Positions 976-20,902 of a DNA stretch of 32,000 bases are shown here, one piece after another. Every line of letters starts with the position of its first letter. The first letter of the stretch is position 1. Source of the DNA: Chlamydiota bacterium (GTDB lineage: Bacteria; Auribacterota; JACPWU01). The notes beneath the pieces are model-generated. The model did not search any database. It was not told where the DNA came from and was given only the letters and a program-made list of their open reading frames with translations. The translations under genes and the position numbers were made by a program. Where the stretch lies: positions 49,847 through 81,846 of the forward strand of contig JACPWU010000039.1 of assembly GCA_016196885.1 (NCBI GenBank). The letters are read 5' to 3'.

Positions 976-1098
976 GTTGTAGGTTATAGGTTTAAAGTTT
1001 TAAAGGAGTTTATTTTTTACTTACATCTTATAGCTTCCCTTCCAATGTGTTACAACTCACCACGCACTACTCACCCCTCACCATTCACTAACGACTTG
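976..1098. repeat. degenerate copy of the GTGAG/CTCAC-unit hairpin element
   Basis: The conserved loop ttttaaaggagtttattttttac lies at 998-1020. The right side carries CTCACCA CGCACTA CTCACCC CTCACCA TTCACTA units. The left arm (gttgtaggttataggtt) has decayed, so pairing is poor. Confidence 0.45.
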
Positions 1099-1155
1099 AA
1101 TCAGAATCTCTTTGCCTTTCTTTTTCATTTTGAAATTTATTCCCTTACCCTTACA

Positions 1156-1578
1156 ATGACACGCATGAAATCTCACACGGAATATCTTTGGTTTAATACC
1201 CAGAGGCATCGTGAGTACATTAATATGACCGATCGGGTCAGAGAGGCCCTTGAAAAAAGCGGGATTCAAGAGGGCATGGTTTTGGTCTCGGCCATGCATA
1301 TTACGGCGGGTGTCTATGTCAATGATGCTGAAAACGGCTTGATTCAAGACATTGATGAAATGCTTCAAAGGCTGGCCCCGGAAGGTCCGCCTTATCAACA
1401 TCACCTGACAGGTGAGACAAATGGCGATGCCCATTTGAAAAATTTATTGATCGGCCATCAAGTGATGCTGCCCGTCACAAAAGGAAAATTAGATTTGGGT
1501 CCCTGGGAACAGGTCTATTATGCGGAATTTGATGGACAGAGGAAGAAGAGAGTCATTGTGAAAGTGATAGGGGAGTGA
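1156..1578 (+). CDS. YjbQ/UPF0047 family protein (secondary thiamine-phosphate synthase-like)
   Basis: Track ORF 1045..1578. The core ([58 protein letters not shown]) fits the YjbQ family. The first 37 track codons are read through the CA-rich arm of a repeat element, so I moved the start to ATG 1156 (1165 is an alternative). Confidence 0.8.
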
Positions 1579-1611
1579 AATCAATAATGAAATCTAAGCA
1601 GAAGTAGAAAG

Positions 1612-2652
1612 ATGATTACAAAAGAAGACATTATCAATCAATTGCGTCATGTCCATTATCCCGGCTTCACCCGAGACATCGTATCTTTCGGTGTGATCCG
1701 GGACGCTATTTTTGAAAATGGACGTGTCGAGATTGTGCTTTCTTTTACGACAGAGGCACCTGATAAACGAGGCCAAATTCAAGAAGGGATTCGAAAGGCG
1801 CTTTCTTCCTTGCCCGAAGTGAAGGAAATAAACTTCAAGGTGGTTGATATTCCTCAGGGCTCCCCTCGGGATCGGGCCATGCTGGAAAGAAAAGAAATTC
1901 CAGGGGTGCGAAATGTCATCGCTGTGGCCAGTGGGAAGGGCGGTGTTGGAAAATCAACGGTGGCGGTGAATTTGGCCTGTGCCTTAAAAATGTTGGGAAG
2001 AAAAGTGGGCCTTTTAGATGCGGACATTTATGGACCGAGTATTCCCATCATGATGGGGCTTTACGATCGGCCTGGGTTGGCGGAAGATCAGAAATTCATT
2101 CCCCCTCAAAAATTTGGTTTGGCGATGATGTCTCTGGGGTTTTTTATAGAAGGGGATAGCCCGGTGATTTGGAGGGGACCCATGGTGACGGGTGCCATTC
2201 GCCAATTGCTTTATGATTCTCAATGGGGAGGGTTAGACGATTTGGTCGTGGATCTTCCCCCGGGGACAGGGGATGCTCAACTCACCTTGGTTCAATTGGC
2301 GCCGTTGAAGGGGGCTGTGATTGTGACCACGCCTCAAGACGTGGCTTTGGTGGATGCCCGCAAAGGGGTTTCCATGTTTCAAAGGTTAGAGGTCAAAATT
2401 TTTGGGATTGTGGAGAACATGAGTTATTTTATTTGTCCTCATTGCCAACATGAGACAGATATTTTGAGTCGCGGGGGAGGAAAGAGAGAAGCCGAACGCT
2501 TGAGTGTTCCTTTTTTAGGTGAAATTCCTATGGATTCTAGTATTTGCTCTGGAGGGGATGGGGGGGTTCCTATTGTGATTCAATCTCCAGAGTCTGAGGT
2601 GTCAAGAGCTTTTCTCCATTTAGCGCAGTCGGTTGTAGGACAGCTAAGTTAG
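1612..2652 (+). CDS. apbC: Mrp/NBP35-family iron-sulfur cluster carrier ATPase with N-terminal DUF59-like domain
   Basis: N-terminal DUF59-like segment (HVHYPGFTRDIVSFGVI), deviant Walker A ASGKGGVGKST, the DLPPGTGD motif and the CPHC cysteine pair. The length of 346 aa is typical for the family. Confidence 0.9.
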   Translation: MITKEDIINQLRHVHYPGFTRDIVSFGVIRDAIFENGRVEIVLSFTTEAPDKRGQIQEGIRKALSSLPEVKEINFKVVDIPQGSPRDRAMLERKEIPGVRNVIAVASGKGGVGKSTVAVNLACALKMLGRKVGLLDADIYGPSIPIMMGLYDRPGLAEDQKFIPPQKFGLAMMSLGFFIEGDSPVIWRGPMVTGAIRQLLYDSQWGGLDDLVVDLPPGTGDAQLTLVQLAPLKGAVIVTTPQDVALVDARKGVSMFQRLEVKIFGIVENMSYFICPHCQHETDILSRGGGKREAERLSVPFLGEIPMDSSICSGGDGGVPIVIQSPESEVSRAFLHLAQSVVGQLS

Positions 2653-2682
2653 AATATTCTTATTTCTTCAGATTCTTTTTTG

Positions 2683-2712
2683 TTGCAATTTTTATCACCA
2701 AGGTTTTATAGT
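2683..2712 (+). promoter_or_regulatory. candidate sigma70-type promoter upstream of the DUF4912/GH57 genes
   Basis: TTGCAA (2683-2688), an 18-nt spacer, then TATAGT (2707-2712), about 70 nt upstream of ATG 2784. This is a motif match only. Confidence 0.25.
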
Positions 2713-2783
2713 AGTCCCAATAGGAGGTTGAATGTGTTTTCCACACTTCAAACGCTTCTTATATTTGGTGAACGAGGGGGTTC

Positions 2784-3785
2784 ATGGAAAAGAAAACTTT
2801 TCAGGGGAAAAAAGATGTTACTCAAGAGAAACCGTCCGTTGTTGCGGAAGTTCCTAAAAGTTTATCCTCTGAAAAATCCCCTTCCAATTTAGTCCAACCA
2901 GATTCTGTTTTAGAAACTCACGCACAGGAAACTGTCGAAGATTCCAAGTTCTACATGGCCCAACAAGGTTGGCCTCTCCCGATGCCGTCTCGGGATCTTG
3001 CTTACGATTATGGAGATAATCGCATCGTTTTAATGCCCGTGGATTCTTTTTGGGCTTTCAGTTATTGGGAAGTGACGAAGGAGCGGGTGGAGGAGGGGCT
3101 TCGTTTCTTGGGGTGTTCGCTCGATCAAACGAAGACCGTGCTGCGGGTTTATGATGTGACGGGACTCGAGGGGACAGAGGGCTCTCATCATCATTATGAC
3201 GTGGAGCTTTCGGGAAGGGTCCGGAATTGGTATTTGAATTTGAACGCACCGGACCACTCTTTCAGGGTGGATATTGGTTTAAGAAACCGAGAGGGCCGCT
3301 TCTTTACCTTGGCGCGTTCCAATACCGTTACCATGCCCCGGGCGGGTGTTTCGGATGTGGTAGATGAGCGCTGGATGAGCATGGAATTTGAAAAGATGTA
3401 CGCCCTTTCCGGAGGGCTTAAAGTAGGTGAGGGTTCGATCGAGCTTCGTCAATTGATGGAGAAGCGTTTTCAAGAAGGTTTATCTTCCGGGGCGCTCTCC
3501 AGTTTCGGGTCCAGTCCCGTGAAGAGAATGGAAAAATCCTTTTGGTTTGTTTTGGATACAGAGCTCGTTGTCTATGGTGCGACAGAGCCTGATGCGCATG
3601 TCACCGTGGCTGGACAACCGGTTCAATTGAGGCCCGATGGCACTTTTACCTTGAGACTTGCATTACCCGACGGTCGCTTTCCCATTTCAGCAAAGGCTGA
3701 GTCCTCAGATGGTAGAGAGGAAAGAACGATCACACCTGTTGTTCAGAGGAACACGGAAATTTCCCAACCTGTTCTTAAAAGCTAG
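2784..3785 (+). CDS. DUF4912 domain-containing protein
   Basis: Contains the motif IVLMPVDSFWAFSYWEV. It lies directly upstream of a GH57 gene, which is the usual DUF4912 context. A GAGGGGG Shine-Dalgarno sits about 5 nt before the ATG. Confidence 0.65.
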   Translation: MEKKTFQGKKDVTQEKPSVVAEVPKSLSSEKSPSNLVQPDSVLETHAQETVEDSKFYMAQQGWPLPMPSRDLAYDYGDNRIVLMPVDSFWAFSYWEVTKERVEEGLRFLGCSLDQTKTVLRVYDVTGLEGTEGSHHHYDVELSGRVRNWYLNLNAPDHSFRVDIGLRNREGRFFTLARSNTVTMPRAGVSDVVDERWMSMEFEKMYALSGGLKVGEGSIELRQLMEKRFQEGLSSGALSSFGSSPVKRMEKSFWFVLDTELVVYGATEPDAHVTVAGQPVQLRPDGTFTLRLALPDGRFPISAKAESSDGREERTITPVVQRNTEISQPVLKS

Positions 3786-3864
3786 TCGTGAGTTGTTAGT
3801 TGTGAGTCGTTAGTTTTAAGGGTATTTATTTTTTACTCACGACTCACCCCTCACGACTCACGAC
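3785..3864. repeat. long hairpin, arms of 7-nt GTGAGNN / NNCTCAC units, conserved loop
   Basis: Left arm gtcgtgagttgttagttgtgagtcgttag, loop ttttaagggtatttattttttac (3814-3836), right arm tcacgactcacccctcacgactcacgac. The element starts on the last base of the upstream stop codon. Confidence 0.8.
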
Positions 3865-3874
3865 GGATTCACCT

Positions 3875-5464: not shown

Positions 5465-5597
5465 AGAAATCCAAAATCCAAAAATCAAAATCCAAAATGA
5501 CAGTCCAAAAATCAAAATTTTTCAATGCAACAACATCAGGGACATTTTGGATTTTGGTGTGTCATTTTGATTTTTGATGTTTGATTTTTGGATTTCT
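5465..5597. repeat. long hairpin with ~53-nt arms of AAATCCA / TGGATTT units, between convergent genes
   Basis: Left arm 5465-5517 (aaatccaaaatccaaaaatcaaaatccaaaatgacagtccaaaaatcaaaa). Right arm 5545-5597 is its imperfect reverse complement. It starts 1 nt after the GH57 stop, and the right arm overlaps the 3' end of the PAP2 gene. Confidence 0.8.
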
Positions 5598-6531: not shown

Positions 6532-6591
6532 CCTTTTATTATAACATGTTTTGAAAGGTAAACAGGGTAAATATAAGGAAAAATAGTTTTA

Positions 6592-6729
6592 GGCATATGC
6601 ACTTGATTCCCCTTTGTAGTCGCCCGATTCATCGGGCAAACCCATGCAAGGGGCACAGCCCCATGAATGGGGCGACTACAACTTCTTGCCATGGCGCTTG
6701 TTATCTAAGGGGAATCAAGTGCATATGCC
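6592..6729. mobile_element. MITE-like non-autonomous element with perfect 21-bp terminal inverted repeats, carrying REPIN copy 1
   Basis: TIRs ggcatatgcacttgattcccc (6592-6612) and ggggaatcaagtgcatatgcc (6709-6729) match at 21 of 21 positions. The direct repeat aaaatagtttt flanks the element at 6580-6590 and 6730-6740. There is no coding capacity. Confidence 0.7.
6614..6681 (-). repeat. REPIN-like doublet of GTAG-palindrome (REP-like) units, copy 1 (inverted relative to copies 2 and 3)
   Basis: Sequence: ttgtagtcgcccgattcatcgggcaaacccatgcaaggggcacagccccatgaatggggcgactacaa. Its reverse complement aligns closely with copy 2. Confidence 0.8.
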
Positions 6730-6818: not shown

Positions 6819-7826
6819 ATGTTTCTCGTTCGCAGCATTGAGAAAAGAGATTTGAGTGCGTTCTTTCGCTTGGCTTCCATTCTTGATACTTATAATCTTC
6901 CCAAAGATAAAGAATTACTCGCCCAGATTATTCAGACCTCTTTAAATTCTTTTAAAGGAAATCTTAAAAACCCTCATGAAGGTCGTTTTGTGTTTGTGGC
7001 CGAGGAGTTGAGTTCTGGAAAGATTGTGGGCACTTCTGAAATTTTGGCAAAGCGAGGTCTGCCTCATAATCCTTTCATTTACTGTGATGTGGGGGAGGAT
7101 TGTTTAAAGAGTCGGACCCTTCATAAAGAAGTGAAACACCGATATATTAAACTTTGCTCGACTTTGGATGGAGCCACAGAGATTGGAGGGTTGGTGGTAG
7201 ATCCTCGTTATCGGGGGAAGGGGAGAGGCGTGGGAAAGGCCTTGTCTTATGTGCGCTTTATGTATATGAAGTTTCATCCCAGAAAATTTCAGAAGAGGGT
7301 GTTGGCAGAGCTTTTGGCTTATTTGACCCCGAAAGGGGAGAATCCCCTGTGGGATGTTTTAGGAAAACATTTTACGGGTCTTTCTTATCATCGGGCGGAT
7401 CGTTTGAGTGTTTTTAACAAAGAATTTATTTTGTCCTTGTTCCCTGCTGAGAAAATCTACACCTGTCTTTTGCCGGAGCGTGTTCAGAGAATTTTAGAAC
7501 GGCCCGGGCTTCATACTGTTCCCGCTCAGGTTTTACTGGAGAAAATTGGGCTTAAATATTTGCGTCAAGTGGATCCATTTGACGGGGGGCCCCTCTATGG
7601 AGCAAAGTTGAGTGATGTAACGATTTATCAAAAGACGAAGCTCTACCCTTTTTCTGGAATGTGTGAAGAAGGCAAAGAGGGCTTGCTTCTTTTTGAAGAA
7701 TCATCCCGTGTGAAAGCCTGTTATGGTTTAGCAAAAATAATGGGTGAAAATATTTTTCTTAATCTTGAATCAGTGCGGGCTTTAAATATCCGCAAGGGGA
7801 ATAGAGTTTTGTTTTATCGTTTTTAA
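6819..7826 (+). CDS. arginine N-succinyltransferase (AstA) family protein
   Basis: From ATG 6819 the N-terminus MFLVRSIEKRDLSAFFRLAS parallels the AstA N-terminus. The ~335 aa length and the GNAT-like core GGLVVDPRYRGKGRGVGKALS also fit. The track start 6786 is a TTG 11 codons upstream. Confidence 0.75.
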   Translation: MFLVRSIEKRDLSAFFRLASILDTYNLPKDKELLAQIIQTSLNSFKGNLKNPHEGRFVFVAEELSSGKIVGTSEILAKRGLPHNPFIYCDVGEDCLKSRTLHKEVKHRYIKLCSTLDGATEIGGLVVDPRYRGKGRGVGKALSYVRFMYMKFHPRKFQKRVLAELLAYLTPKGENPLWDVLGKHFTGLSYHRADRLSVFNKEFILSLFPAEKIYTCLLPERVQRILERPGLHTVPAQVLLEKIGLKYLRQVDPFDGGPLYGAKLSDVTIYQKTKLYPFSGMCEEGKEGLLLFEESSRVKACYGLAKIMGENIFLNLESVRALNIRKGNRVLFYRF

Positions 7827-7882
7827 CGAACGACGATGAACAAACGACGCAGAACGGTTTTGCTATGAAAGTGAGGCTCATT

Positions 7883-7954
7883 TTGTAGTCGCCCCATTTA
7901 TGGGGCTGCCGTGTGCCCCTTGCATGGATTGCCCGATGAATCGGGCGACTACAA
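7883..7954 (+). repeat. REPIN-like doublet, copy 2
   Basis: Sequence: ttgtagtcgccccatttatggggctgccgtgtgccccttgcatggattgcccgatgaatcgggcgactacaa. It is nested in a 12-bp outer inverted repeat, tgctatgaaagt (7861-7872) / actttcatagca (7974-7985). Confidence 0.8.
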
Positions 7955-8017
7955 AAAAAGCATGATTGGGAGAACTTTCATAGCACACGATGATCTCGAA
8001 AGATCATTAAAATTTAT

Positions 8018-8941
8018 ATGAGAGCTCTGGTTGTAGGGGATCCTTCTTTTTTTAGAATTAGATCGGGGTCTAATCCTCATACTCGAAACAGATGGGGAGT
8101 GAAGAAGTGTGTAGATTTGGATTTAGCCAAGCGCCAATGGAAGAATTTTGTAGATCGTTTAGAAGAGATGGGTGCTCGGGTGTATGTGATTCCTCCTGTG
8201 AAGGATTGTCCCGGAATGGTTTTCCCCGCGAATGCAGGGGTTGTGATTCCAAGGGAAGAAAAGATTCCCTTTTCTAAAAAAACTTTTCTCTTAAGTTCAT
8301 TGATCGAAGGGCGCAAAAGTGAAACGAATTATGACGAGCCTTTTTTTCGCCAATTGGGTTTTCAAATTGAGAAGATTTCTTGCCCCTTTGAGGGGGAGGC
8401 CGATTTTTTCCAGGCAGGGTCTTATTTTATTTTTACATATGGGAAGATTCTCCCTCAACATTTTCGGATGAAGAGGGGGTGGCCACCTTATGAAAGAGTC
8501 TATGGGTTTAGAAGCAGTTTGAATTTCTTAGAGACGGTGACGAAATGGATTTCTCGCGAGCGCATTTTGCCTTTGGAATTGGCGGATGAACGATTTTATC
8601 ATGGCGATACGGTTTTTTGCCCATTTGGAGAAGGCTATGATCATGTGCTTGCCTATCTACCAGCCCTCACGTCTCAGGCTCAAGGTTTGTTGAAAGAGCA
8701 TCTCGTCGATCGCTTGATTTTGTTGAGTGATGAGGATGCCTTTAAATACGCAGCAAATTCTTTTTATTTATCCACAGAGAAGGGGAAATTTCTTATCATG
8801 CCTTCGGGTGTGAGTCCCCAGTTAAGGGATCAGGTGATAGAACGGGGGGTGACTCCCATCGAGATCAATGTGTCTGAATTTTTCGAAAAAGGGGGAGGCT
8901 CTGTCAAGTGTATGATTTTAGACTTGGGGCCGATGGGTTAA
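8018..8941 (+). CDS. amidinotransferase / dimethylarginine dimethylaminohydrolase-like guanidino-group-modifying enzyme
   Basis: C-terminal GGGSVKCM carries the catalytic-Cys motif of the GME superfamily. FYHGDTVFCP supplies the His/Asp motif, and PGMVFPANAG is also present. Confidence 0.7.
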   Translation: MRALVVGDPSFFRIRSGSNPHTRNRWGVKKCVDLDLAKRQWKNFVDRLEEMGARVYVIPPVKDCPGMVFPANAGVVIPREEKIPFSKKTFLLSSLIEGRKSETNYDEPFFRQLGFQIEKISCPFEGEADFFQAGSYFIFTYGKILPQHFRMKRGWPPYERVYGFRSSLNFLETVTKWISRERILPLELADERFYHGDTVFCPFGEGYDHVLAYLPALTSQAQGLLKEHLVDRLILLSDEDAFKYAANSFYLSTEKGKFLIMPSGVSPQLRDQVIERGVTPIEINVSEFFEKGGGSVKCMILDLGPMG

Positions 8942-8943
8942 GA

Positions 8944-9015
8944 ACAGTTGTGAGTGGTGAGAGGTGAGTTTTAAAGGTATTATTTTTTTACTCACCCCTC
9001 ACCCCTCACGACTGT
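8944..9015. repeat. long hairpin, GTGAGNN / NNCTCAC units, conserved loop (cleanest copy)
   Basis: Left arm acagttgtgagtggtgagaggtgag, loop ttttaaaggtattatttttttac (8969-8991), right arm tcacccctcacccctcacgactgt. About 21 of 24 positions are complementary. It is followed by TTTT. Confidence 0.85.
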
Positions 9016-9033
9016 TTTATAATACTTAAGTTC

Positions 9034-9062
9034 TTGCTATCCCAATTGTTCTATCTTATACT
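9034..9062 (+). promoter_or_regulatory. candidate sigma70-type promoter for the chemosensory cluster
   Basis: TTGCTA (9034-9039), a 17-nt spacer, then TATACT (9057-9062), about 64 nt upstream of cheW ATG 9126 and just after the 8944-9015 hairpin. This is a motif match only. Confidence 0.3.
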
Positions 9063-9125
9063 GTTCGTGGGTTCGAGGTTTCTAAAATTGAAGGTTGCTC
9101 ATAAAGGGAATTCTATTACCTCACG

Positions 9126-9635
9126 ATGAGTCAACAGGATCAAGCCGAAAGCCCACTTTCTCTTTACGAAGAGGAGTTGTACGGGGAGAAGGAAGTTCGA
9201 GAAGCGACCCGTCAGCTCATCGTCTTTTCTTTAGGCCCAGAATACTATGGGCTTGATGTTTGCGGTGTTTGTGAGGTTCTTGCGTCTTCTCAGATGACGC
9301 TTCTTCCGAATGTTCCGCCCCATATCAAGGGGATTATCAATTTGCGAGGGATCATTCTTTCCGTTTCAGATCTCAAGGTAATCTTGGGTCTTCCAGAAAG
9401 TTCTCAAAATCAAAAAAATCAGATTGTGGTTGCCCAGAGCTGTAAGATAGCCACAGGTTTCTGGGTGGATGGGAACACGGAGTCTATTGAAATTTCCATT
9501 TCAAAAATTCAACCTTTGGTTTCAACATTAGATGCCCAGAAGGCTTCTCTGATGCAGGGTCAGGTGGATTATTTGGGAAGGTTGGTAACGGTGTTGGATG
9601 TGGATGCAGTGATTCAGAAGACGAGGGTGGGATAA
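9126..9635 (+). CDS. cheW: chemotaxis coupling protein CheW
   Basis: Single CheW-like domain: QLIVFSLGPEYYGLDVCGVCEVL, IKGIINLRGIILSVSDLKVILGL. Confidence 0.9.
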   Translation: MSQQDQAESPLSLYEEELYGEKEVREATRQLIVFSLGPEYYGLDVCGVCEVLASSQMTLLPNVPPHIKGIINLRGIILSVSDLKVILGLPESSQNQKNQIVVAQSCKIATGFWVDGNTESIEISISKIQPLVSTLDAQKASLMQGQVDYLGRLVTVLDVDAVIQKTRVG

Positions 9636-9640
9636 AAAAA

Positions 9641-9704
9641 TAGCGTTCAGCATTCAGCGTACAGTTTATAAGGAATAATTTTTTTCCTGAACGCTGAACG
9701 CTGA
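9641..9704. repeat. hairpin, TTCAGCG / CGCTGAA units, conserved loop
   Basis: Left arm tagcgttcagcattcagcgtacag, loop tttataaggaataatttttttcc (9665-9687), right arm tgaacgctgaacgctga. It lies 5 nt after the cheW stop. Confidence 0.8.
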
Positions 9705-9718
9705 AAAAGGGGGGGGAT

Positions 9719-11095
9719 ATGAGCAAACTCTGGTTTGCAGTGTGGTGGACGGCATTCATGATGGGCTTTTTAGAAGTGGCGCATGCCGACGAGGTTTCGG
9801 ATTTGAAAGAGACCGTTCGCCAGATGCAGGTCCAAATGGCGGTCATGCAAGAGGAGATTCAAGGTTTAAAGACGCAACTTCGTTCTCAGGAGGCAAGCAC
9901 TGTTTCGAGTCCTGCTCAAGCAGGGGCGCCGTCAGATGTTGCCACACTCAAAGAAGAAATGGCAGCCGTTGAAGAACAAGAGAAGGGGACTTTGGAACGC
10001 TTGGATGAGATGGTGAATTTTGATTTATATGCAACGCTGGCTTTTGAAAATTTTCAGAATACAGATTCTGCTTTTGATGCCCGCAATGTTGAACTTTTGG
10101 CAAGTGCTCATATGACGGATCGGTTGAAGGTCTATACAGAAATTGAGTTTGAACGGGCCTCTACAACCTTAGATGAACCTCAGCAGGGTGAAATTGAAGT
10201 GGAACAAGGGTGGTTAGAATATACGATCAATGATTATTTTAAGCCACGGTTTGGCGTCATGTTGGTTCCATTTGGAAAGTATAACTTAGAACATTTTGAG
10301 CCCTATCAAGAATTAACAGATCGGCCTATTGCTATCAGGCGAATCATACCCACCACCTGGGCGGAGGCAGGCGCGGGATTTACGGGCAATGCTTTTTTAG
10401 GAGATAAAGTGGGTGCTGAAGCGTTGAAAGATTTGTCGCTCAATTACCAAATTTATCTCGTGAATGGTTTAACCGATTTGATCAGTGACACAGGCACTCG
10501 AGATGCAAAAGGTAATTTTGGTTTTGATAGCAATAACAACAAGGCTTTTGTGGGCCGTTTGGGGATCAGTCCTCTTTCGGATCAGGAGGTGGGTGTCAGC
10601 GGCTATGTGGGTGATTATGATAGGGAGAATAACACCCTCTCAGGTGTGGATGTGGATTGGCATTTTAGCATTTCAAAATTTGAGTTGGTGGGAGAATATG
10701 CCTTCCTGAATCTTGAAGAAGGTTTTCAAGGATCTGAAGGAGATGAGGAAGATATATTGGCATCTCCCTTGCTTGTTCCTGACAGCATGGATGGAGGCTA
10801 TGTGGAACTCCGTTATCATTTTTGGTTTGAATGTTTAAACGGTACTTTTTTGAGAAGAGGTTTTGAGAGTCCCACGTTCACAGCTGTTCTGAGGTACGAT
10901 CGGGCCACCATCGCGGATGATACAGATGAAGGGGGGGGTGATAATCAGGAAGAACGATGGACCCTAGGGTTAAATTATCGTCCTGTCCAGACATGGGTGT
11001 ATAAAGCGGAGTATCAATTTAACGAGACGGACCATGAGGTTCTTGAACGGGGTGATAACGATGGGTTTATTGCTTCCGTGACGGCTGCGTTTTAA
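9719..11095 (+). CDS. outer-membrane porin-like beta-barrel protein with N-terminal coiled coil
   Basis: Signal peptide MSKLWFAVWWTAFMMGFLEVAHA, then a coiled-coil segment (VSDLKETVRQMQVQMAVMQEEIQGLKTQL), then alternating amphipathic strands. The C-terminal ...SVTAAF ends on an aromatic residue, as in OMPs. The overall layout resembles phosphate-selective porin O/P-type proteins. Confidence 0.55.
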   Translation: MSKLWFAVWWTAFMMGFLEVAHADEVSDLKETVRQMQVQMAVMQEEIQGLKTQLRSQEASTVSSPAQAGAPSDVATLKEEMAAVEEQEKGTLERLDEMVNFDLYATLAFENFQNTDSAFDARNVELLASAHMTDRLKVYTEIEFERASTTLDEPQQGEIEVEQGWLEYTINDYFKPRFGVMLVPFGKYNLEHFEPYQELTDRPIAIRRIIPTTWAEAGAGFTGNAFLGDKVGAEALKDLSLNYQIYLVNGLTDLISDTGTRDAKGNFGFDSNNNKAFVGRLGISPLSDQEVGVSGYVGDYDRENNTLSGVDVDWHFSISKFELVGEYAFLNLEEGFQGSEGDEEDILASPLLVPDSMDGGYVELRYHFWFECLNGTFLRRGFESPTFTAVLRYDRATIADDTDEGGGDNQEERWTLGLNYRPVQTWVYKAEYQFNETDHEVLERGDNDGFIASVTAAF

Positions 11096-11100
11096 TAATA

Positions 11101-11218
11101 CCGTACATCGTGCATCGTACTTCGTACTTCGAATACCGTGCAATCGCAATTTCGTTGTTACGATGTTCGATGTTCGCTGAACGATGTACTGCCTTTAAGT
11201 ACGATGCACGATGCACTG
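11101..11218. repeat. long imperfect hairpin of ACATCG/CGATGT-type units
   Basis: Outer stem gtacatcgtgcatcgtac (11103-11120) pairs with gtacgatgcacgatgcac (11199-11216) at 17 of 18 positions. The inner parts are unit arrays related, in inverted orientation, to the element at 20785-20887. Confidence 0.7.
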
Positions 11219-11237
11219 TCTTTAAGAGGAGAGGTCT

Positions 11238-11705
11238 ATGAAAAGAGTGTTATCCATTTTACTGGTGATGGCTGGGCTTCTGGCTGCCTCAGGAGTTTAC
11301 GCAAAAGAGATTGCGGTGATTGTGAATAAGGAGAATGGGACGAGCAACCTTTCGATGTCTGAGCTCTCCAGAATTTACGAGGGGAAGATGACGAGTTGGT
11401 CGAATGGTTCTCGTATGATGGTTATCAATCGGCCAACGGCTTCCCCGATCCGTTCGGCTTTTTATCGAACGGTGTTGGGGGTCGAGGCCGGCAAGCAATT
11501 TTTTCAGCCGGGGAGTCCCGTGCCTTTTAAGACGATGATTCAAGAATCGGATACGGCGACGAAACGCATGGTGAGTCAAATGCCCAATGCAGTGGGCTAT
11601 ATCTATGTTGATGCGTTGGATGATACGGTCAAGGCCGTTTCGATTGATGGGGCCTCTCTGACACCCGATGATATTAGCAGTGGAAGATATGCTTTGAAGG
11701 AATAG
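11238..11705 (+). CDS. PstS-like periplasmic substrate-binding domain protein (short, single lobe)
   Basis: Signal peptide MKRVLSILLVMAGLLAASGVYA. The motifs IAVIVNKEN, LSMSELSRIYEGKMTSW and NAVGYIYVDAL resemble the PBP_like_2/PstS family. At 155 aa it is only about half the size of a full PstS. Confidence 0.6.
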   Translation: MKRVLSILLVMAGLLAASGVYAKEIAVIVNKENGTSNLSMSELSRIYEGKMTSWSNGSRMMVINRPTASPIRSAFYRTVLGVEAGKQFFQPGSPVPFKTMIQESDTATKRMVSQMPNAVGYIYVDALDDTVKAVSIDGASLTPDDISSGRYALKE

Positions 11706-11710
11706 GGAAA

Positions 11711-11818
11711 GACAGTCGTGAGTGGTGAGTCGTGAGGGGTGAGTTTTATAGGTATGATTTTTCACTCACGACTCACCCCTCACGACTGTTTTACTCTTAC
11801 TCACCCCTCACGGCAGTT
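11711..11818. repeat. long hairpin, GTGAGNN / NNCTCAC units, conserved loop, with a duplicated right arm
   Basis: Left arm 11711-11743, loop ttttataggtatgatttttcac (11744-11765), right arm 11766-11789 with ~25 bp near-perfect pairing. A second partial 'TTTTAC + tcttactcacccctcacggcagt' copy follows at 11790-11818. Both right arms are followed by T4-5. Confidence 0.85.
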
Positions 11819-11850
11819 TTTACGGTTTTAGAAGAAAGGAGCTTTTGACC

Positions 11851-14283: not shown

Positions 14284-14470
14284 ATAATGTGCCAATGTGA
14301 TGGCAATAGCAGTGAAACAATATTTGATGGTTTTCTTTAACCCCTCCAGCTCCCCTTTCCCACAGGGACTATAAGAGCTTGAAATAAGGGGAGGGCTCCC
14401 CTCTTATTTCAAGAGGTTATAGTCCCCGTGGGAAAGAGGGGTTGGGGGAGTTATTTCATTGGCACATTAT
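14284..14470. repeat. nested inverted repeats filling the whole mcp-cheA intergenic space
   Basis: Outer inverted repeat aataatgtgccaatg (14284-14298) pairs with cattggcacattat (14457-14470). An inner ~57-nt-arm imperfect palindrome is centred near 14395 (..cccctttcccacagggactataagagcttgaaataaggggag / ctcccctcttatttcaagaggttatagtccccgtgggaaagagggg..). Confidence 0.8.
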
Positions 14471-14471
14471 C

Positions 14472-16793: not shown

Positions 16794-16803
16794 GGATAAC
16801 CTT

Positions 16804-17580: not shown

Positions 17581-17628
17581 AACATTCATGCCGACTGAGG
17601 TCGGCACAAAAGGGGATGAAAATCACCC

Positions 17629-17704
17629 TTGTAGTCGCCCCATTTATGGGGCGGTCTATGACATTGTGGCATTGGGCATTGCCCGATAAATCGGGCGACT
17701 ACAA
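17629..17704 (+). repeat. REPIN-like doublet, copy 3
   Basis: Sequence: ttgtagtcgccccatttatggggcggtctatgacattgtggcattgggcattgcccgataaatcgggcgactacaa. The termini match copy 2 but the spacer differs. Confidence 0.8.
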
Positions 17705-17749
17705 GTCATCATGAGTCATTGTATAAGAATGACTAAAGACTATTTTCAG

Positions 17750-17826
17750 GTGAAAAGTGAAGAATGGATAGTGAAAAGTGAAAAATTGAAAACCCGTTAA
17801 CATTTTTCACTTTTCATTTTTCACTC
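17750..17826. repeat. hairpin of GTGAAAA / TTTTCAC units
   Basis: Left arm gtgaaaagtgaagaatggatagtgaaaagtgaaaaa, loop ttgaaaacccgttaaca, right arm tttttcacttttcatttttcactc. It lies upstream of cheB. Confidence 0.75.
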
Positions 17827-17843
17827 TTAATTATTGAAAAACT

Positions 17844-18887
17844 ATGATCCGCGTCCTCGTTGTTGAAGATTCACTCCTAGAAACTAAATTAATTTCCGAA
17901 ATCTTGGGTTCGGATCCTGACGTGACTGTGATCGCAGTGGCTCGAGACGGAAATGAGGCCATTGCCCAAGTTGAAAAATTGCGTCCAGATCTTGTGACGA
18001 TGGACATTCACATGCCCAAAATGGACGGCCTTGAAGCGACCAAGCAAATCATGGCTTATCATCCCACGCCCATCTTAGTCTTGAGCTCTTCTATTTTTAG
18101 CCGAGGTGCGGACAAAGCCTTTAAGGCGATGTCTTATGGTGCATTGGATGTTGTAGAAAAGGCTTTTTTTAAAGGGAAAGAATTAGACGAGGTCTGGAGA
18201 AAGGAATTTCTTGAGAAGGTTAAATTTCTTTCCAAGATCAAGGTCATTCCTCACCCCTTGGCCAAACTCGAGAAAGGTTTTAAACACGCGGATCTTCCTC
18301 CTATTTGCGCCAAGACAAGCGGGGGAATGAAAATTGTCGCCATGGTTGCTTCCACGGGCGGTCCGCAAGCCCTTCTTGAAATTCTCAAATCACTCCCCAA
18401 AAATTTTCCTGCCCCTTTGGTTTTGGTTCAGCATATTGCCTCGGGTTTTACGGAAGGGTTTGTGAAATGGTTATCGGATCAGACACAGGTGAAAGTCAAA
18501 ATGGCGCAGCAGGGGGAAGCTTTAAATCCTGGCGTTGTCTATGTGGCCCCTTCAGGTTTACAGATGCGTGTGACCCCAACGCACAAAATTGAGTTGAAGG
18601 ATGATCCGCCGTATGATGGCCTTCAACCATCGGGCACGGTGCTTTTGAAATCTGCGGCCTTGGCCTTTGGAAATCAGAGCCTCGGCGTCGTTTTATCTGG
18701 GATGGGAAAAGACGGAGCAGAAGGGTTAAAGTGTATTTACGAAACCAAAGGACATACCCTTGTCCAGGATGAAATGAGCTCCGTTGTTTATGGGATGGCC
18801 AAGGCGGCCATGGATCTGGGTGTGGTACATGAGGCTTTGCCCCTCAGTGAAATTGCGAGTAGGATTATTAAGTGGGTAGGTGCTTAA
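17844..18887 (+). CDS. cheB: protein-glutamate methylesterase CheB (REC + esterase)
   Basis: N-terminal REC (IRVLVVEDS..DLVTMDIHMPKMDG) plus a CheB esterase domain (VAMVASTGGPQAL, LSGMGKDGAEGL). Confidence 0.9.
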   Translation: MIRVLVVEDSLLETKLISEILGSDPDVTVIAVARDGNEAIAQVEKLRPDLVTMDIHMPKMDGLEATKQIMAYHPTPILVLSSSIFSRGADKAFKAMSYGALDVVEKAFFKGKELDEVWRKEFLEKVKFLSKIKVIPHPLAKLEKGFKHADLPPICAKTSGGMKIVAMVASTGGPQALLEILKSLPKNFPAPLVLVQHIASGFTEGFVKWLSDQTQVKVKMAQQGEALNPGVVYVAPSGLQMRVTPTHKIELKDDPPYDGLQPSGTVLLKSAALAFGNQSLGVVLSGMGKDGAEGLKCIYETKGHTLVQDEMSSVVYGMAKAAMDLGVVHEALPLSEIASRIIKWVGA

Positions 18888-18950
18888 GTGTCTAAGTGTT
18901 TAAGTGATAAGGAAGGATTTTTTTACTTAAGCACTTAGCACTTACGCACT
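18880..18950. repeat. hairpin of TAAGTGNN / NNCACTTA units, conserved loop
   Basis: Left arm gtgcttaagtgtctaagtgtttaagtga, which includes the cheB stop codon. Loop taaggaaggatttttttac (18908-18926), right arm ttaagcacttagcacttacgcact. Confidence 0.8.
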
Positions 18951-18963
18951 AGGAGTCTTAAAA

Positions 18964-19416
18964 ATGCTCACAGTCGTTTTTAAATTGGCCTCAGAGTGTT
19001 TTGGTATTCCGGTCGAACAGGTGAAGGAAGTGGTGAAATTGTCTGTGACAAGACCCCTTCCTCAGGCCCCCTCTTTTGTGGACGGAATCATCGCTTTGAG
19101 GGGACACAGTGTGGCGGTGATGGATTTGGCAAGAAGGCTGAATATTGCAAGAGGAGATCTTCAGGGCAAAGACCGCAAGGTTTTGATTGTGAGGGTTGAG
19201 CAGAAGATCTTGGGCTTGATTGTGGATGATGTCATGAGCGTTTTGGAAGTAGAGCAAAAGGCAATAGATGCCGCGGCCCGTGTCGTGAATGGTTCTTGGC
19301 AGGGGAAGGCGGTGGCAGGGATTGCCCATTCGGGAGGTAAAGAGATCATCCTTCTGGATTTAAAAAATTTGCTCAATCCTGAAGAAAATCAAGCCTTAGA
19401 GAAGGTTAAACGCTAA
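18964..19416 (+). CDS. cheW: chemotaxis coupling protein CheW
   Basis: CheW-like domain: FKLASECFGIPVEQVKEV, VDGIIALRGHSVAVMDLARRL. AGGAG lies 8 nt before the ATG. Confidence 0.9.
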   Translation: MLTVVFKLASECFGIPVEQVKEVVKLSVTRPLPQAPSFVDGIIALRGHSVAVMDLARRLNIARGDLQGKDRKVLIVRVEQKILGLIVDDVMSVLEVEQKAIDAAARVVNGSWQGKAVAGIAHSGGKEIILLDLKNLLNPEENQALEKVKR

Positions 19417-19420
19417 AGCC

Positions 19421-20815
19421 ATGGAACTTTCGCTGGAGGTGTTTCGTCAATTTCAAAGATTTTTGGTGGAGGAGTCAGGTCTTTATTTTTCAGAGGATCG
19501 AAAAGCCTCCTTACAGCAAAAATTAGATGAGCGAATCAGAATTTGCGAACGAGCCACCTATGAAGAGTATTTTCATTATCTCAAATTTCATCCTCAGGGA
19601 CGGCTTGAATTAAAAGCCCTTCTCGATCTTCTCACGATTGGTGAGACCTATTTTTTTCGCAATGAACCACAGTTCGAGGCCTTGAGGGATTATGTGTTGC
19701 CAAATATTCTTAAAGAGAAGAAGGACACTTTAAGGATTTGGAGCGCAGGCTGCTCTACCGGGGAAGAGCCTTATTCGATTGCCATGCTTTTAAGGGAACA
19801 TCTTACCTTCTTTGAGAACTGGGAAATTTCCATTTTAGCCACCGATATCAATCAAAATGTTTTGAAGGCTGCTCAAGAGGGTATTTACAACGCTCGGGCC
19901 GTTCACGCCATGCCTACAGAATATCTTCAGAAATATTTTGTTCAAAAGGGACAGAAATTTTGGATTTCGGAAGAAATAAAAAAAATGGTGCAATTTCAAT
20001 ATCATAATTTAGTTCGAGATCCCTTCTCTTTGCCTCTCATGCAAAATCTAGACATTCTCTTTTGCAGGAATGTAATCATTTATTTTAACATCGAGACGAT
20101 TCGGCGTATCCTTTCTCAGTTTGCAGAGTGCCTCCTGACGGACGGATTTCTTTTTGTGGGACACGCAGAGACCTTGTGGAATCTCTCGGATGATTTTAGC
20201 CCCATCGAATTTCCTCAGACATTTCTTTATCAGAAAACAGAGGGTCCCGCTTCAAAACGTTCTCGACCTCCCGAAATTTTATTACCGAGTTTTGAAAAGG
20301 TAGATGAAGATGTGCCGATGGACCGATGTGCCCATGTGCCAATGAAAAAAAAGGACAGGCGTTCATCGGCACATCGGCACATCGGCACATGGGTACAAAT
20401 GATGTCTCAAGCCGTTCATTTGGCAAACGAGGGAAGGTATGAAGAGGCTCTGATCGGTGTTGAAAAAATAATTCATGAGAATAACCTCCATCTTCAGGCC
20501 CATTTTTTAATGGGGGTTCTCTTGGCGAAACTTCATCGTTATGAAAAGGCGGTGAAGCAGTTTGAGAGGGTGCTCTACATTGATGAGAAAATGTCTATTG
20601 CCTATTTTCATCTGGGACATTTGTATCGCCTGACGGAGAAATTTGAAAAAGCGAAAAAGGCTTATGAAAATTGTCTGAATATTTTGGAGAAAAAAAAGGT
20701 AGATGAAATAATCCCTTTTTCGGAAGGCTTGACCGTGGGGGTTTTGAACGAGGCGACGCATCGGGCCTTGGAAACGCTTAAAGACAGTACATCGTACAGC
20801 GAACATCGTACTTAA
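19421..20815 (+). CDS. cheR: chemotaxis protein methyltransferase CheR with C-terminal TPR region
   Basis: CheR N and SAM-binding domains are present (ETYFFRNEPQF, RIWSAGCSTGEEPYSIAML, ILFCRNVIIYF). The C-terminus has TPR-like repeats (YEEAL..NLHLQAHFLMGVLLAKLHRYEKAVKQFERVLYID..AYFHLGHLY). It starts 4 nt after the cheW stop. Confidence 0.9.
   Translation: MELSLEVFRQFQRFLVEESGLYFSEDRKASLQQKLDERIRICERATYEEYFHYLKFHPQGRLELKALLDLLTIGETYFFRNEPQFEALRDYVLPNILKEKKDTLRIWSAGCSTGEEPYSIAMLLREHLTFFENWEISILATDINQNVLKAAQEGIYNARAVHAMPTEYLQKYFVQKGQKFWISEEIKKMVQFQYHNLVRDPFSLPLMQNLDILFCRNVIIYFNIETIRRILSQFAECLLTDGFLFVGHAETLWNLSDDFSPIEFPQTFLYQKTEGPASKRSRPPEILLPSFEKVDEDVPMDRCAHVPMKKKDRRSSAHRHIGTWVQMMSQAVHLANEGRYEEALIGVEKIIHENNLHLQAHFLMGVLLAKLHRYEKAVKQFERVLYIDEKMSIAYFHLGHLYRLTEKFEKAKKAYENCLNILEKKKVDEIIPFSEGLTVGVLNEATHRALETLKDSTSYSEHRT
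20309..20396. repeat. hairpin of 4 x 8-nt units per arm (GATGTGCC / CATCGGCA) located inside the cheR coding sequence
   Basis: Left arm 20309-20344, loop aaaaaaaaggacaggcgtt at 20345-20363, right arm 20364-20396. It is translated in frame as DVPMDRCAHVPMKKKDRRSSAHRHIGTWV in the linker between the CheR and TPR domains. Confidence 0.8.
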
Positions 20816-20887
20816 GGACAGTACATCGAACATCGAACATCGTGATTTTGTTGTTGCGATGTACGAAGTACGAAGTCCGATGTACGG
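20785..20887. repeat. imperfect hairpin of ACATCG / CGATGT-type units overlapping the cheR 3' end
   Basis: Left arm cagtacatcgtacagcgaacatcgtacttaaggacagtacatcgaacatcgaacatcgtga; its first 30 nt encode the CheR tail STSYSEHRT plus the stop. Right arm gcgatgtacgaagtacgaagtccgatgtacgg, followed by TTTT and an AGGAG Shine-Dalgarno. Confidence 0.7.
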
Positions 20888-20902
20888 TTTTAGGAGAACG
20901 TT

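Follow-up and report, generated by a model that had tools for sequence, protein, structure and literature searches.

Palindromic elements with tandem 7–8-nt arms in a Chlamydiota bacterium, proposed to be ORF-less relatives of IVS-type cassettes

Results

Palindromic elements occupy the short operon spacers of the window

The window, by which we mean the whole 32,000-nt stretch of DNA analysed here, comes from an uncultured PVC-group bacterium and includes genes for DUF4912, GH57, AstA, PAP2, CheB and CheR-TPR proteins as well as a giant ORF, and 13 of its 17 intergenic gaps hold a palindromic element (Table 1). Most elements occupy short operon spacers and end 11–33 nt before the next start. 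A first-pass annotation had placed several of them next to stop codons, and the stops do lie where it put them (the ORFs end at 3785, 8941, 9635, 11705 and 18887, with the CheB stop falling within the left arm of element F); this adjacency largely arises because the elements fill short operon spacers. Element H sits between the convergent GH57 and PAP2 genes, CheR takes its stop and final ~10 codons from element J and is 9–11 aa longer than its homologs, and element K lies in a CheR-TPR linker that is hypervariable among homologs. Also present, but absent from the first listing, are 20309–20399, 23098–23135, 23339–23372 (a half element whose partner arm is absent), 14284–14471, and a separate GTAG-headed REPIN-like family also carried by the window. 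The repeat at 14284–14471 shares an 11-mer with element K and surrounds an unrelated palindrome at 14338–14453, and nested insertion of one palindromic element within another is present in the window.

Table 1 Elements and arrays in the window. Fold z-scores are from RNAfold; the start under which a locus was folded is given in brackets where it differs from the element start.
Feature	Position	Strand	Remarks
Element A, decayed GTGAGNN-type copy	976..1098	+	Loop motif intact at 998–1020, 4 mismatches to consensus
Element B, GTGAGNN/NNCTCAC hairpin between DUF4912 and GH57	3785..3864	+	z −7.4 on +; TRF period 7/14
Element B loop	3814–3836	+	Motif match
Element H, AAATCCA-type hairpin, 54-nt arms	5465..5597	.	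z −8.5 on +, −8.2 on −
Single direct period-7/14 array AACAAACGACGAAG, directly after AstA stop	7825..7855	+	TRF
Element C, GTGAGNN hairpin, reference loop 8969–8991	8941..9018	+	z −10.0 on + (8944)
Element D, TTCAGCG-type arms, loop 9665–9687	9641..9706	+	z −4.8 on +, −7.1 on −
Element I, ACATCG-type composite hairpin	11096..11224	+	z −6.5 on + (11101)
Element E, GTGAGNN hairpin, loop 11744–11765	11706..11822	+	z −9.7 on + (11711); perfect 17-bp arm pair
Outer inverted repeat, TAATGTG/CAATGTG units, ATAATGTGCCAATG / CATTGGCACATTAT	14284..14471	.	DNA fold z −8.8
Element G, GTGAAAA/TTTTCAC hairpin just upstream of cheB	17750..17828	.	z −5.1 on +
Element F, TAAGTGNN (8-nt) arms, loop GATAAGGAAGGATTTTTTT	18868..18953	+	z −7.0 on + (18880), −6.7 on −; TRF period 8/16
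Element K, GATGTGCC (8-nt) hairpin in CheR-TPR linker coding region	20309..20399	.	z −7.6; TRF
Element J, inverted copy of element I, 34-nt tandem duplication	20775..20890	−	z −3.9 on + (20785); TRF period 34
Single AAGGGTC x4.4 array, in frame in giant ORF	23098..23135	+	TRF; translation
Half element, ATAAAGACAGT then TTCAGCG/TACAGCG array, in frame in giant ORF	23339..23372	+	Terminal motif

Ten loci had been proposed as inverted-repeat hairpins, and nine of them fold far better than 100 dinucleotide shuffles per locus (z −3.9 to −10); the exception is 976–1098, which folds no better than its shuffles on either strand (z +0.4 on +, +1.8 on −), and here the left arm is degraded, the arms no longer pair and an unpaired CTCAC array lies at 1055–1098. 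Every arm is a period-7/8 array in TRF, as had been proposed, and the arm pairs were recovered by a repeat search of the window. Whole-unit differences between arms are also borne out: element E has four left and three right units with the right arm duplicated at 11793–11822, which fits slippage. In the suggested search of Rfam no match attained the gathering score; relaxing the threshold brought up only generic miRNA-precursor hairpins, all sub-threshold. The plasmid and phage collections searched gave no matches to the elements.

The ends of independent Logan contigs fall within or at three of the hairpins: one terminates within the loop of element A (L007), and another (L001) begins at 8966, the arm-loop junction of element C, 3 nt ahead of the loop, and stops at 11768 in element E. 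Such breaks of short-read contigs at hairpin loci would be expected if the assembler had made chimeric or fold-back sequence at repeats, but the chance of this is close to negligible, given that two independent assemblies agree at every base across stretches of 2.8 kb and 2 kb, that the elements lie precisely between intact ORFs, and that comparable elements are found in other MAGs as well as in finished plasmids.

A loop motif common to three arm types

The 23-nt loop motif TTTTAAAGGTATTATTTTTTTAC has five matches at ≤6 mismatches (998, 3814, 8969, 9665 and 11744; the element D loop agrees at 18 of 23 positions), all on the + strand and inside hairpin loops, where 0–0.33 are expected. It had been claimed that six loci with unrelated arms carry almost the same loop. 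That description needs narrowing, as the loop at 18908 (element F) shares with the motif only AAGG and the 11-mer ATTTTTTTACT, the latter also in the element C loop, and as the loci at 976, 3785, 8944 and 11711, the four GTGAGNN-type copies of the window, are an ordinary repeat family. What stands is a loop common to three arm types within the 32-kb window; a scan of a metagenome collection for the loop added only 81 background matches, none with flanking arms. Across these types the arms are 17–50% identical and the loops 64–82%, with 83% of pair cells paired and both sides altered at 16 of 18 stem positions; a conserved loop between variable, covarying arms therefore describes these three types, but not the remaining five hairpins, element H among them, whose loops are unrelated to the motif.

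The arm types are linked by 7–12-nt strings and a terminal motif, and hence are not fully unrelated. This motif, TAAARACAGT, stands ahead of arrays of three different unit types and has 21 matches against 9.1 expected, and paired termini of the form TAAARACAGT ... ACTGTYTTA resemble TIRs (TTAAGAACAGT ... ACTGTTTTATAA in element C, GGAAAGACAGT in element E, and TTAAAGACAGT on the − strand of element I at 11215–11225 and 11188–11198). In addition, ATTTTTCACTC, the unit of element G, is also the loop-arm junction of element E. We count the terminal motif, the loop common to three arm types and this shared junction in favor of a single superfamily.

One may postulate that the ~20–23-nt loop is a minute mobile module in its own right, similar to the cyanobacterial SDRs, that inserts into the center of pre-existing heptamer palindromes. 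This would explain an identical loop in different arms, three types of which contain it; Nostoc SDR5 is cited in PMC4390886 as inserting precisely into the center of the HIP1 palindrome, and palindrome-in-palindrome insertion is seen in the window. We nevertheless regard this scenario as highly doubtful: no module-free hairpin with D- or F-type arms is present in the window as an empty site, loop divergence (0–6 mismatches inside the GTGAGNN family, more outside) tracks arm divergence as common descent predicts, and the window has no loop copies outside hairpins other than loose resemblances at 64–80 and ~22155.

Recent insertion and copying

Orthologous spacers in relatives with 83–85% identical GH57 carry no hairpin; L089/L090 have an orthologous spacer of 47 nt that lacks element B, and unrelated sequence occupies its site in L005/L006. 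Element J matches the reverse complement of element I at 80% identity, non-repeat parts included. Absence from relatives together with these inverted copies shows that the elements were recently inserted in the short spacers of operons and, now and then, in coding regions that tolerate them or at gene ends, and that they have been copied between sites. The four GTGAGNN copies and the Logan contig breaks at three hairpins likewise speak for copying. AAAATCA-type hairpins akin to element H are found in the relatives L003/L004 and L093, and in L003 a GTNACNG array takes the place of the one at 7825..7855; hairpins of this kind were absent from a 21-kb Omnitrophota locus.

These observations bear on whether the elements are selected cis-regulatory RNAs, that is, intercistronic terminators, attenuators or 3′-end stabilizers whose arms are free to change if pairing is kept and whose A/U-rich loop serves either as an internal promoter or as a binding site (for a protein, for Hfq or in ribosome standby). 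A conserved loop with covarying stems is a classic functional-RNA signature, all six motif-bearing loops are co-oriented with the genes, the loops hold SD-like AAGG/AGGAG and a TAnnTTTT-like tract, T3–5 follows C, E, I and J, and most gaps are occupied. Such covariation is, however, expected anyway from DNA-level homogenization of a palindrome, and the decayed element A retains its loop without a stem. A feature missing from the relatives' orthologous spacers is not a conserved regulatory one, several elements lie within coding regions (K, 23098–23135 and 23339–23372), and five hairpins have unrelated loops. Stem mismatches lack G-U strand asymmetry (8 vs 8, plus 26 transversions), so nothing points to selection on the sense-strand RNA, a point that also counts against the IVS-like reading discussed below. 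The terminator role raised in the first-pass annotation gains little: a run of T4–5 follows only ~4 of 10 elements, most elements lie inside operons, and consensus terminator and promoter scans flag none. We consider a regulatory origin rather improbable, although a role as 3′-end stabilizer or processing site is possible.

PF05635 cassettes bounded by inverted heptamer arrays

PF05635/S23p proteins, encoded in intervening sequence (IVS) cassettes, are small four-helix bundles. In L093, from a related MAG, a gene for this IVS protein (E 3.5e-26) lies between cheA and cheB, flanked by 22 upstream heptamers (TAATGTG/CGATGTG) and ~8 complementary downstream units; the cassette is just upstream of cheB, the position equivalent to that of element G in the window. 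Inverted period-7 arrays were found on both sides of 17 of the 23 PF05635 loci checked, with such arms present in seven bacterial phyla; the loci came from the PVC group, Omnitrophota, Cyanobacteria, Bacteroidota, Gemmatimonadota, Alphaproteobacteria and an unassigned 'bacterium' MAG, the alphaproteobacterial locus being a true 23S rRNA IVS. At seven loci with sliding controls the observed score was reached at no control position, and ~55 kb of flanking plasmid DNA held no other period-7 hairpins. Among cassettes with both neighbors annotated, 13 of 14 were co-oriented with them, and the six motif-bearing loops of the window are likewise co-oriented with its genes.

The units at 14284–14471 are of the same type as those of the cassettes in L093, L098, L111 and L115. 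Some findings weigh against a tie to the cassettes. Unit types shared with known cassettes are confined to this repeat, element K and, loosely, elements I and J, and do not include the main GTGAGNN family. The window contains no PF05635 gene or remnant by tblastn, and similarity between its loops and the L093 cassette boundaries has p-values of 0.01–0.6 per loop, uncorrected.

An alternative without any tie to IVSs or PF05635 is that the elements are ordinary REP/MITE-like selfish palindromes, with heptamer SSR arrays as a slippage-prone sequence type of this clade that sometimes forms inverted pairs; common loops and termini would then reflect descent within one MITE family mobilized by a transposase in trans. 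Dispersed copies in both orientations, the TIR-like termini, nested insertions and single unpaired arrays (7825, 23098, 23339 and that of L003) are all consistent with this, as are the GTAG-headed REPIN-like elements of the window and a Y1_Tnp protein encoded by L093. Yet target-site duplications were not observed, a GTAG/CGTC head is missing from the heptamer hairpins, and this account leaves unexplained both the inverted arrays at most PF05635 genes and none in control DNA, and the L093 cassette at the site of hairpin G. We view it as unlikely, though a credible contender.

Discussion

The explanation we favor is that the loci are ORF-less, IVS-like selfish stem-loops and, by analogy, probable substrates of RNase III, a reading to which we assign a probability of about 0.5. 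They would all be copies from one superfamily of selfish palindromic insertion elements specific to this lineage, with convergent tandem 7–8-nt arrays as arms (GTG-type units 5′, CAC-type units 3′), and would represent ORF-less ('mini') members of a class that includes 23S rRNA IVSs and PF05635/S23p gene cassettes, in which inverted heptamer arrays bound a cargo and the element is co-oriented with the host transcription unit around it. The arms may evolve quickly by slippage, corrected on the template of the opposite palindrome arm, while the central loop, in the cargo position, would be altered by point mutation only; the loop would consequently look conserved while the arms covary. In the operon transcript, each element is predicted to fold into a 20–50-bp double-stranded stem that RNase III, by analogy with IVSs, would be expected to cut, either removing the loop and separating the cistrons or leaving the upstream 3′ end protected by a stem. 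Folding would also bring the stop codon of the upstream gene back next to the ribosome-binding site of the downstream one, which would explain why insertions are tolerated.

The architecture had been thought to match no described class, but heptamer-armed hairpins are not unprecedented, as the PF05635 loci and two published systems make clear. In Xanthomonas, convergent (GGGANTN)n heptamer arrays occur near the 3′ ends of ORFs: they form 70–75 convergent inverted pairs, and 89–93% are intergenic, with a mean distance of 28 nt to the upstream ORF (Rehm et al. 2015, PMC4692102). The Coxiella 23S rRNA IVS forms a 28-bp stem that is cut by RNase III and carries tandem heptamers; these GACAGAT units lie at the 5′ cut site, and their number varies between strains (PMC4990558).

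Palindromic hairpins with tandem-repeat arms

Palindromic elements of some kind occupy 13 of the 17 intergenic gaps of the window, and its conspicuous feature is thereby identified concretely as palindromic insertions in most gaps between genes (Table). The window has a G+C content of ~44% and a positive GC skew throughout. Its + strand holds nearly all genes, which include YjbQ, Mrp, DUF4912, GH57, AstA, an amidinotransferase, a large chemotaxis cluster, and a giant ORF that has a signal-peptide-like start, contains in-frame heptamer arrays, and continues past the right window end. A GH57 protein identical to that of the window comes from a MAG labelled 'Chlamydiae bacterium', and the next relatives of GH57 are 83-85% identical. 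Among species-representative genomes, the sole relative was an Omnitrophota MAG whose porin-like protein is 38% identical; the organism is treated here as an uncultured member of the PVC group.

Table. Coordinates of hairpin elements and other repeat features in the window.
Feature	Position	Unit or motif	Loop
Hairpin A	976-1098	GTGAGNN	motif at 998
Hairpin B	3785-3864	GTGAGNN	motif at 3814
Hairpin C	8941-9018	GTGAGNN	motif at 8969
Hairpin D	9641-9706	TTCAGCG	motif at 9665
Hairpin E	11706-11822	GTGAGNN	motif at 11744
Hairpin F	18868-18953	TAAGTGNN	partial motif at 18908
Hairpin G	17750-17828	TTTTCAC	unrelated (hairpin at 17750)
Hairpin H	5465-5597		unrelated (hairpin at 5465)
Hairpin I	11096-11224	ACATCG	unrelated (hairpin at 11101)
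Hairpin J	20775-20890	ACATCG	unrelated (hairpin at 20785)
Hairpin K, CheR-TPR linker	20309-20399	8-nt units	unrelated
Outer inverted repeat, MCP-CheA spacer	14284-14471	TAATGTG-type (ATAATGTGCCAATG/CATTGGCACATTAT)	
Palindrome within that repeat, 116 nt	14338-14453		
GTAG-headed doublet	6614-6681	TTGTAGTCGCCC	
GTAG-headed doublet	7881-7956	TTGTAGTCGCCC	
GTAG-headed doublet	17628-17705	TTGTAGTCGCCC	
Outer inverted repeats around doublets	6592-6729; 7861-7985		
Array right after AstA stop	7825-7855	period 14	
Loop-like strings outside hairpins	64-80; about 22150-22165	AGGTATTTTTTTGAG, AATGTTTTTTTAAC	
Giant ORF, >3,267 aa	22199-32000		
In-frame array, giant ORF	23098-23135	heptamer	
In-frame array, giant ORF (half-element 23339)	23339-23372	TTCAGCG	

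Each locus was folded on both strands and compared with 100 dinucleotide shuffles. Nine of the ten loci for which the first-pass annotation had proposed long hairpins are strongly structured (z -3.9 to -10.0); the tenth, element A, folds no better than its shuffles (z +0.4 and +1.8 on the two strands), and in it the loop motif is kept and the left arm has decayed. A further hairpin, K, lies in the CheR-TPR coding region. The description of the arms as tandem short units was borne out by Tandem Repeats Finder, which detected period-7 or period-8 arrays in every arm; stems span 19-54 nt at 79-93% complementarity, loops 15-28 nt, and arm pairs are 79-100% complementary in an inverted-repeat search. 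Arms at a single locus do differ by whole units, as proposed: element E has four against three, plus a duplicated right arm, indicating slippage.

Stem mismatches included equal numbers of G-U pairs (8 vs 8), with no sense-strand excess, and 26 transversions. Given the absence of such an excess, complementarity does not have to be upheld in the RNA, and the simpler inference is correction of one arm templated by the other. The elements illustrate how concerted evolution of palindromic DNA can produce a conserved loop between covarying stems, a caveat for the discovery of RNA motifs by covariation.

Several described identities were considered and set aside. Rfam gave no matches in the window at the gathering threshold, on which ground a riboswitch reading was dropped, and at E<1 returned only sub-threshold eukaryotic miRNA-precursor models. 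Scans for terminator and sigma-70 promoter consensus sequences flagged no hairpin or loop, and phage and plasmid collections searched by blastn with elements C and I yielded nothing relevant. Intrinsic (Rho-independent) terminators have a short G+C-rich stem and a 3-8-nt loop followed by a U-tract; the loops here are of 15-28 nt rather than 3-8, T3-5 tails follow about four in ten hairpins, and none was recovered by the consensus scan. Outer ends without attC core sites argued against attC, and repeats without unique spacers between them against CRISPR.

A loop and termini shared between arm types

The loop motif TTTTAAAGGTATTATTTTTTTAC has five matches in the window at <=6 mismatches (elements A to E), all on the + strand and within hairpin loops, against 0-0.33 expected from Markov-shuffled windows; the loop of element F has in common with it AAGG and the 11-mer ATTTTTTTACT. 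The first-pass annotation had described six loci with unrelated arms and almost the same loop. This stands in part: four of the six have GTGAGNN arms and, having a common arm type, form an ordinary repeat family, whereas the loop is indeed common to three arm types. Across these, the 18 nt adjoining the loop are 17-50% identical and the loops 64-82%, a contrast by which the central observation holds, in a small sample; 83% of pair cells are paired, with changes on both sides at 16 of 18 stem positions. The loops of five other hairpins are unrelated to the motif.

All six motif-bearing loops lie on the + strand, co-oriented with the genes; for the other loops, orientation is not definable. A conserved loop of this kind might belong to a selected regulatory structure in which the loop itself is functional, a reading we regard as improbable when set beside the balanced G-U counts of the stems. 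Still less probable is that the loop is itself a very small mobile module, for which SDR5 inserting into HIP1 offers a comparison. The pattern AGTTTWWWRGGNRTNNWTTTTTTMC gave 81 single matches in one metagenome-collection scan, a background level, none of them with complementary flanking arms, and no matches in viral contigs. Two strings that resemble the loop but belong to no hairpin (AGGTATTTTTTTGAG, AATGTTTTTTTAAC) are located ~45-55 nt before the points at which the first ORF and the giant ORF start; conceivably, then, a promoter element of the organism is similar to the T-rich half of the loop.

Three unit types have a terminal motif, (T)TAAAGACAGT, ahead of their arrays: GTGAGNN in C and E, ACATCG in I and J, and TTCAGCG in the half-element at 23339. 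It has 21 matches at <=2 mismatches vs 9.1 expected, and at <=1 mismatch five of six matches fall at array boundaries. Other arm types are linked as well: the TTTTCAC unit of G is the loop-arm junction of E, TACAGCG-containing strings are common to D, the 23339 array and J, and ATGTGCCAATG is common to K and the outer inverted repeat of the MCP-CheA spacer. These links point to two conserved modules, termini and loop, with fast-changing arrays between them.

Placement, copying and recent insertion

The upstream stop-codon positions of the first-pass annotation are correct. Most elements start 0-10 nt past a stop codon and leave 11-33 nt to the next start, and the adjacency to stop codons largely reflects that they fill short operon spacers. 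Close relatives differ at the same sites: the DUF4912-GH57 spacer of L089 and L090 (GH57 85% identical) is 47 nt long with the hairpin absent, and that of two JGI relatives is an unrelated sequence of 335 nt. The window elements are therefore sporadic and lineage-specific among close relatives; at a distant Omnitrophota locus (38% identity) there were no comparable hairpins or arrays. The 335-nt spacer itself (L005 5618-5951, L006 1470-1803) is near-identical between the two contigs and looks structured; it may represent a non-coding RNA or some other element.

Element I matches J, taken as reverse complement, at 80% identity, non-repetitive parts included, so whole elements have been copied between sites in either orientation. 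Independent Logan short-read contigs from the same sample agree exactly with the window and break off inside hairpin loops or at their margins, at 8966, 11768 and ~1025 (L001 corresponds to window 8966-11768, and L007 ends near 1025), as expected of multi-copy repeats. Elements also extend into coding sequence. The CheB stop lies inside an arm of F (18868-18887), and CheR exceeds its homologs by 9-11 aa, its tail consisting of the last ~10 codons plus stop from J (20775-20815). Hairpin K occupies a linker that is hypervariable in homologs. In-gene units of 7-8 nt could permit frameshift switching. In the MCP-CheA spacer, the outer inverted repeat encloses an unrelated palindrome, which indicates nested insertion.

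Repeat arrays of other kinds were seen nearby. In the relative L003, AstA is bordered on each side by an array of GTNACNG heptamers in direct rather than inverted arrangement (10130-10165 and 11210-11253), and in the window the AstA stop is followed at once by an array with a period of 14 and a different sequence; the position of this array seems to be retained while the unit differs.

A second repeat family in the window comprises three GTAG-headed REP doublets, REPIN-like, in which the head and a short palindrome occur twice in inverted orientation (DNA folds z -7 to -10); two of the three are nested in further outer inverted repeats. The related MAG contig L093 encodes at 2124-3119 (-) a protein of 330 aa that combines an IS200-like Y1 transposase domain with a DnaA C-terminal HTH, and whose gene is flanked by the inverted repeat GGGACGTTCATTGA and adjoins the chemotaxis cluster of that relative. 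It is a candidate mobilizing enzyme for palindromic repeats of the clade.

A REP/REPIN identity for the heptamer-armed hairpins was rejected, as their termini read ...ACAGT/ACCGT rather than having a GTAG/CGTC head, and a RAYT gene is absent from the window. As regards MITEs, C, E, I and J carry TIR-like TAAARACAGT / ACTGTYTTA; no target-site duplication was recognizable in element flanks. With the copying of whole elements on one side and the atypical termini on the other, a generic REP/MITE-like family unrelated to rRNA intervening sequences (IVSs) is an unlikely explanation, albeit one to be taken seriously.

Most PF05635 genes examined are flanked by inverted heptamer arrays

The chemotaxis cluster of L093 (GCA_016178055.1, JACOUC010000017.1) contains at 7451-8030, between cheA and cheB, a gene of the PF05635 (S23p/IVP) family of four-helix-bundle proteins known from 23S rRNA IVSs. 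Its upstream arm consists of 22 tandem heptamers (TAATGTG/CGATGTG/GAATGTG) and its downstream arm of ~8 complementary units (CACATTA/CACATCG). At the counterpart site of the window, hairpin G lies immediately upstream of cheB, and units of the TAATGTG/CGATGTG type occur in K and in the outer repeat of the MCP-CheA spacer.

Inverted period-7 arrays occur on both sides of the gene at 17 of the 23 PF05635 loci examined (seven phyla), a sample that includes orthologous or duplicate contexts (L119 and L120; L126 and L127). One remaining locus has direct arrays on both sides, two have a one-sided array, and the rest have none. In sliding controls at the seven loci with enough flank, 0 of 93-377 positions reached the observed inverted-repeat score, and ~55 kb of flanking plasmid DNA held no other period-7 hairpins. 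The arm unit varies by lineage (TAATGTG, CAGGAGT, GGGAAAA, GGGTGTA, AAGGTTY, GGTGACA, AGGGCAG, GACAGAG), and the cassettes are co-oriented with both neighbors in 13 of the 14 cases where both are annotated. In Omnitrophota and an unassigned MAG they separate T2SSE from T2SSF, GatA from GatB, and an aldehyde dehydrogenase from a cytidylyltransferase; cyanobacterial-plasmid loci include cas6-[gene]-cas4 and cas10-[gene]-cmr3, and other plasmid loci come from Riemerella, Gemmatirosa and Azospirillum, the last (L110) lying within a genuine 23S rRNA IVS. Apart from the single case of the Coxiella IVS, this general association is apparently undescribed in the literature searched. It is a more interesting outcome than the window hairpins, and may connect heptanucleotide repeat arrays, rRNA IVSs, and the multi-copy S23p/four-helix-bundle family of unknown function.

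Many PF05635 homologs lie on contigs of just 0.5-3 kb, which fits assembly breaks at repeat arms. Heptamer-armed cassettes beside cas genes were found in Pseudanabaena (L106, cas6-cas4), Picosynechococcus (L108, cas10-cmr3) and Anabaena sp. 90 (L125, upstream of cas4). The '23S rRNA IVP' has been listed as associated with CRISPR adaptation modules (PMC10910872); that association may reflect selfish insertion between cas genes rather than function.

Interpretation

We give roughly even odds (about 0.5) to the window hairpins being ORF-less members of an IVS-like class of transcript-embedded stem-loops, a class that would combine a conserved central cargo position with fast-evolving convergent heptamer arms. 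This reading explains the conserved loop and variable arms, since the gene-carrying cassettes show the same contrast, and it covers three further traits: the motif loops point the same way as the genes, the elements sit in operon spacers, and relatives lack them. The hairpins are best classed as IVS-like, heptamer-armed palindromic elements of mRNA spacers. By analogy with IVSs, stems of 20-50 bp would be likely RNase III substrates, and folding would join the upstream stop codon to the downstream ribosome-binding site, making insertions tolerable. Against it, the window is without a PF05635 gene or remnant (nothing below E 0.09 in tblastn with three PF05635 proteins), and GTGAGNN, the unit of the main window family, is absent from known cassettes. 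For the idea that the loop is a relic of the SD and post-stop region of a cassette, window loops locally aligned with the L093 cassette junction reached uncorrected p values of 0.01-0.6 each.

It is doubtful whether one can go further and join heptamer-armed hairpins, cyanobacterial/Xanthomonas-type arrays and rRNA IVSs into one transcript-embedded mobile class. In that scheme the autonomous form would carry the PF05635 protein, a relative of Avd (DGR accessory), acting in arm formation or propagation, and the window hairpins would be non-autonomous derivatives with the loop as the former cargo site.

Comparison with described systems

The earlier observation is largely right and the feature real; the claim of an unprecedented architecture is not right, as convergent heptamer pairs have already been described in Xanthomonas (Rehm et al. 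2015, PMC4692102). There, (GGGANTN)n arrays of the GGGAATC type form 70-75 convergent inverted pairs capable of stem-loops, are 89-93% intergenic and mostly between co-directional ORFs, and are separated from the upstream ORF by 28 nt on average and from the following one by 160 nt (PMC4692102). Degenerate heptamers, convergent pairing, intergenic location and proximity to the upstream ORF are common to both systems; the Xanthomonas units are heterogeneous at two positions, and array length differs between species (PMC4692102). Unlike the window elements, they comprise a single G-rich unit type, read as G-quadruplex-forming, with no several-unit superfamily and no conserved loop reported (PMC4692102).

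Beggiatoaceae, cyanobacteria and Bacteroidetes also have heptamers repeated in direct orientation. The cyanobacterial STRR heptanucleotide repeats reportedly go back to work by Mazel in 1990, and in rnpB of heterocystous cyanobacteria STRRs are said, by Vioque in 1997, to lengthen helix P12 as complementary arms. STRR and the Beggiatoaceae TAACTGA repeats, the latter just upstream of start codons, resemble the window elements as intergenic tandem heptamers of particular lineages with several unit families per genome (PMC4679880). They differ in being mostly direct arrays, and neither a conserved loop nor conserved termini have been described for them.

REP/REPIN, RPE and other bacterial palindromic repeats or MITEs are, like the window elements, short, dispersed, intergenic, hairpin-forming and multi-copy (PMC3116915, PMC3733652), and REP-class repeats likewise break short-read assemblies. 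In REPs, however, the arms and the GTAG/CGTC head are conserved and the loops variable, whereas here tandem SSR arms vary and conservation lies in the loop and outer termini. In-frame insertion into genes is also a trait of Rickettsia RPEs.

ORF-less IVSs of about 100 nt exist. The 23S rRNA IVSs of Coxiella, Leptospira and Salmonella resemble the window elements in that their complementary ends pair into a stem of 20-30+ bp (PMC4990558), and are likewise sporadic, lineage-specific, regarded as selfish, and part of the host transcript. Tandem heptamers are found in the stems of the Coxiella and Azospirillum (L110) IVSs; in Coxiella the heptamer count varies with the strain, and the first repeat is where the 5' cut is made (PMC4990558). 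Unlike IVSs, the window elements have mRNA hosts (operon spacers and two coding regions) rather than 23S rRNA helix 9, 25 or 45 or 16S, no rRNA being present in the window by Rfam; they also have no ORF, many copies per genome and several arm types, and RNase III excision is a feature of IVSs. The PF05635 cassettes differ in holding a ~370-bp gene where the window elements have a 15-28-nt loop, and share with them convergent period-7 arms whose unit differs between copies or lineages, a conserved central part, and a position between co-directional genes in host orientation.
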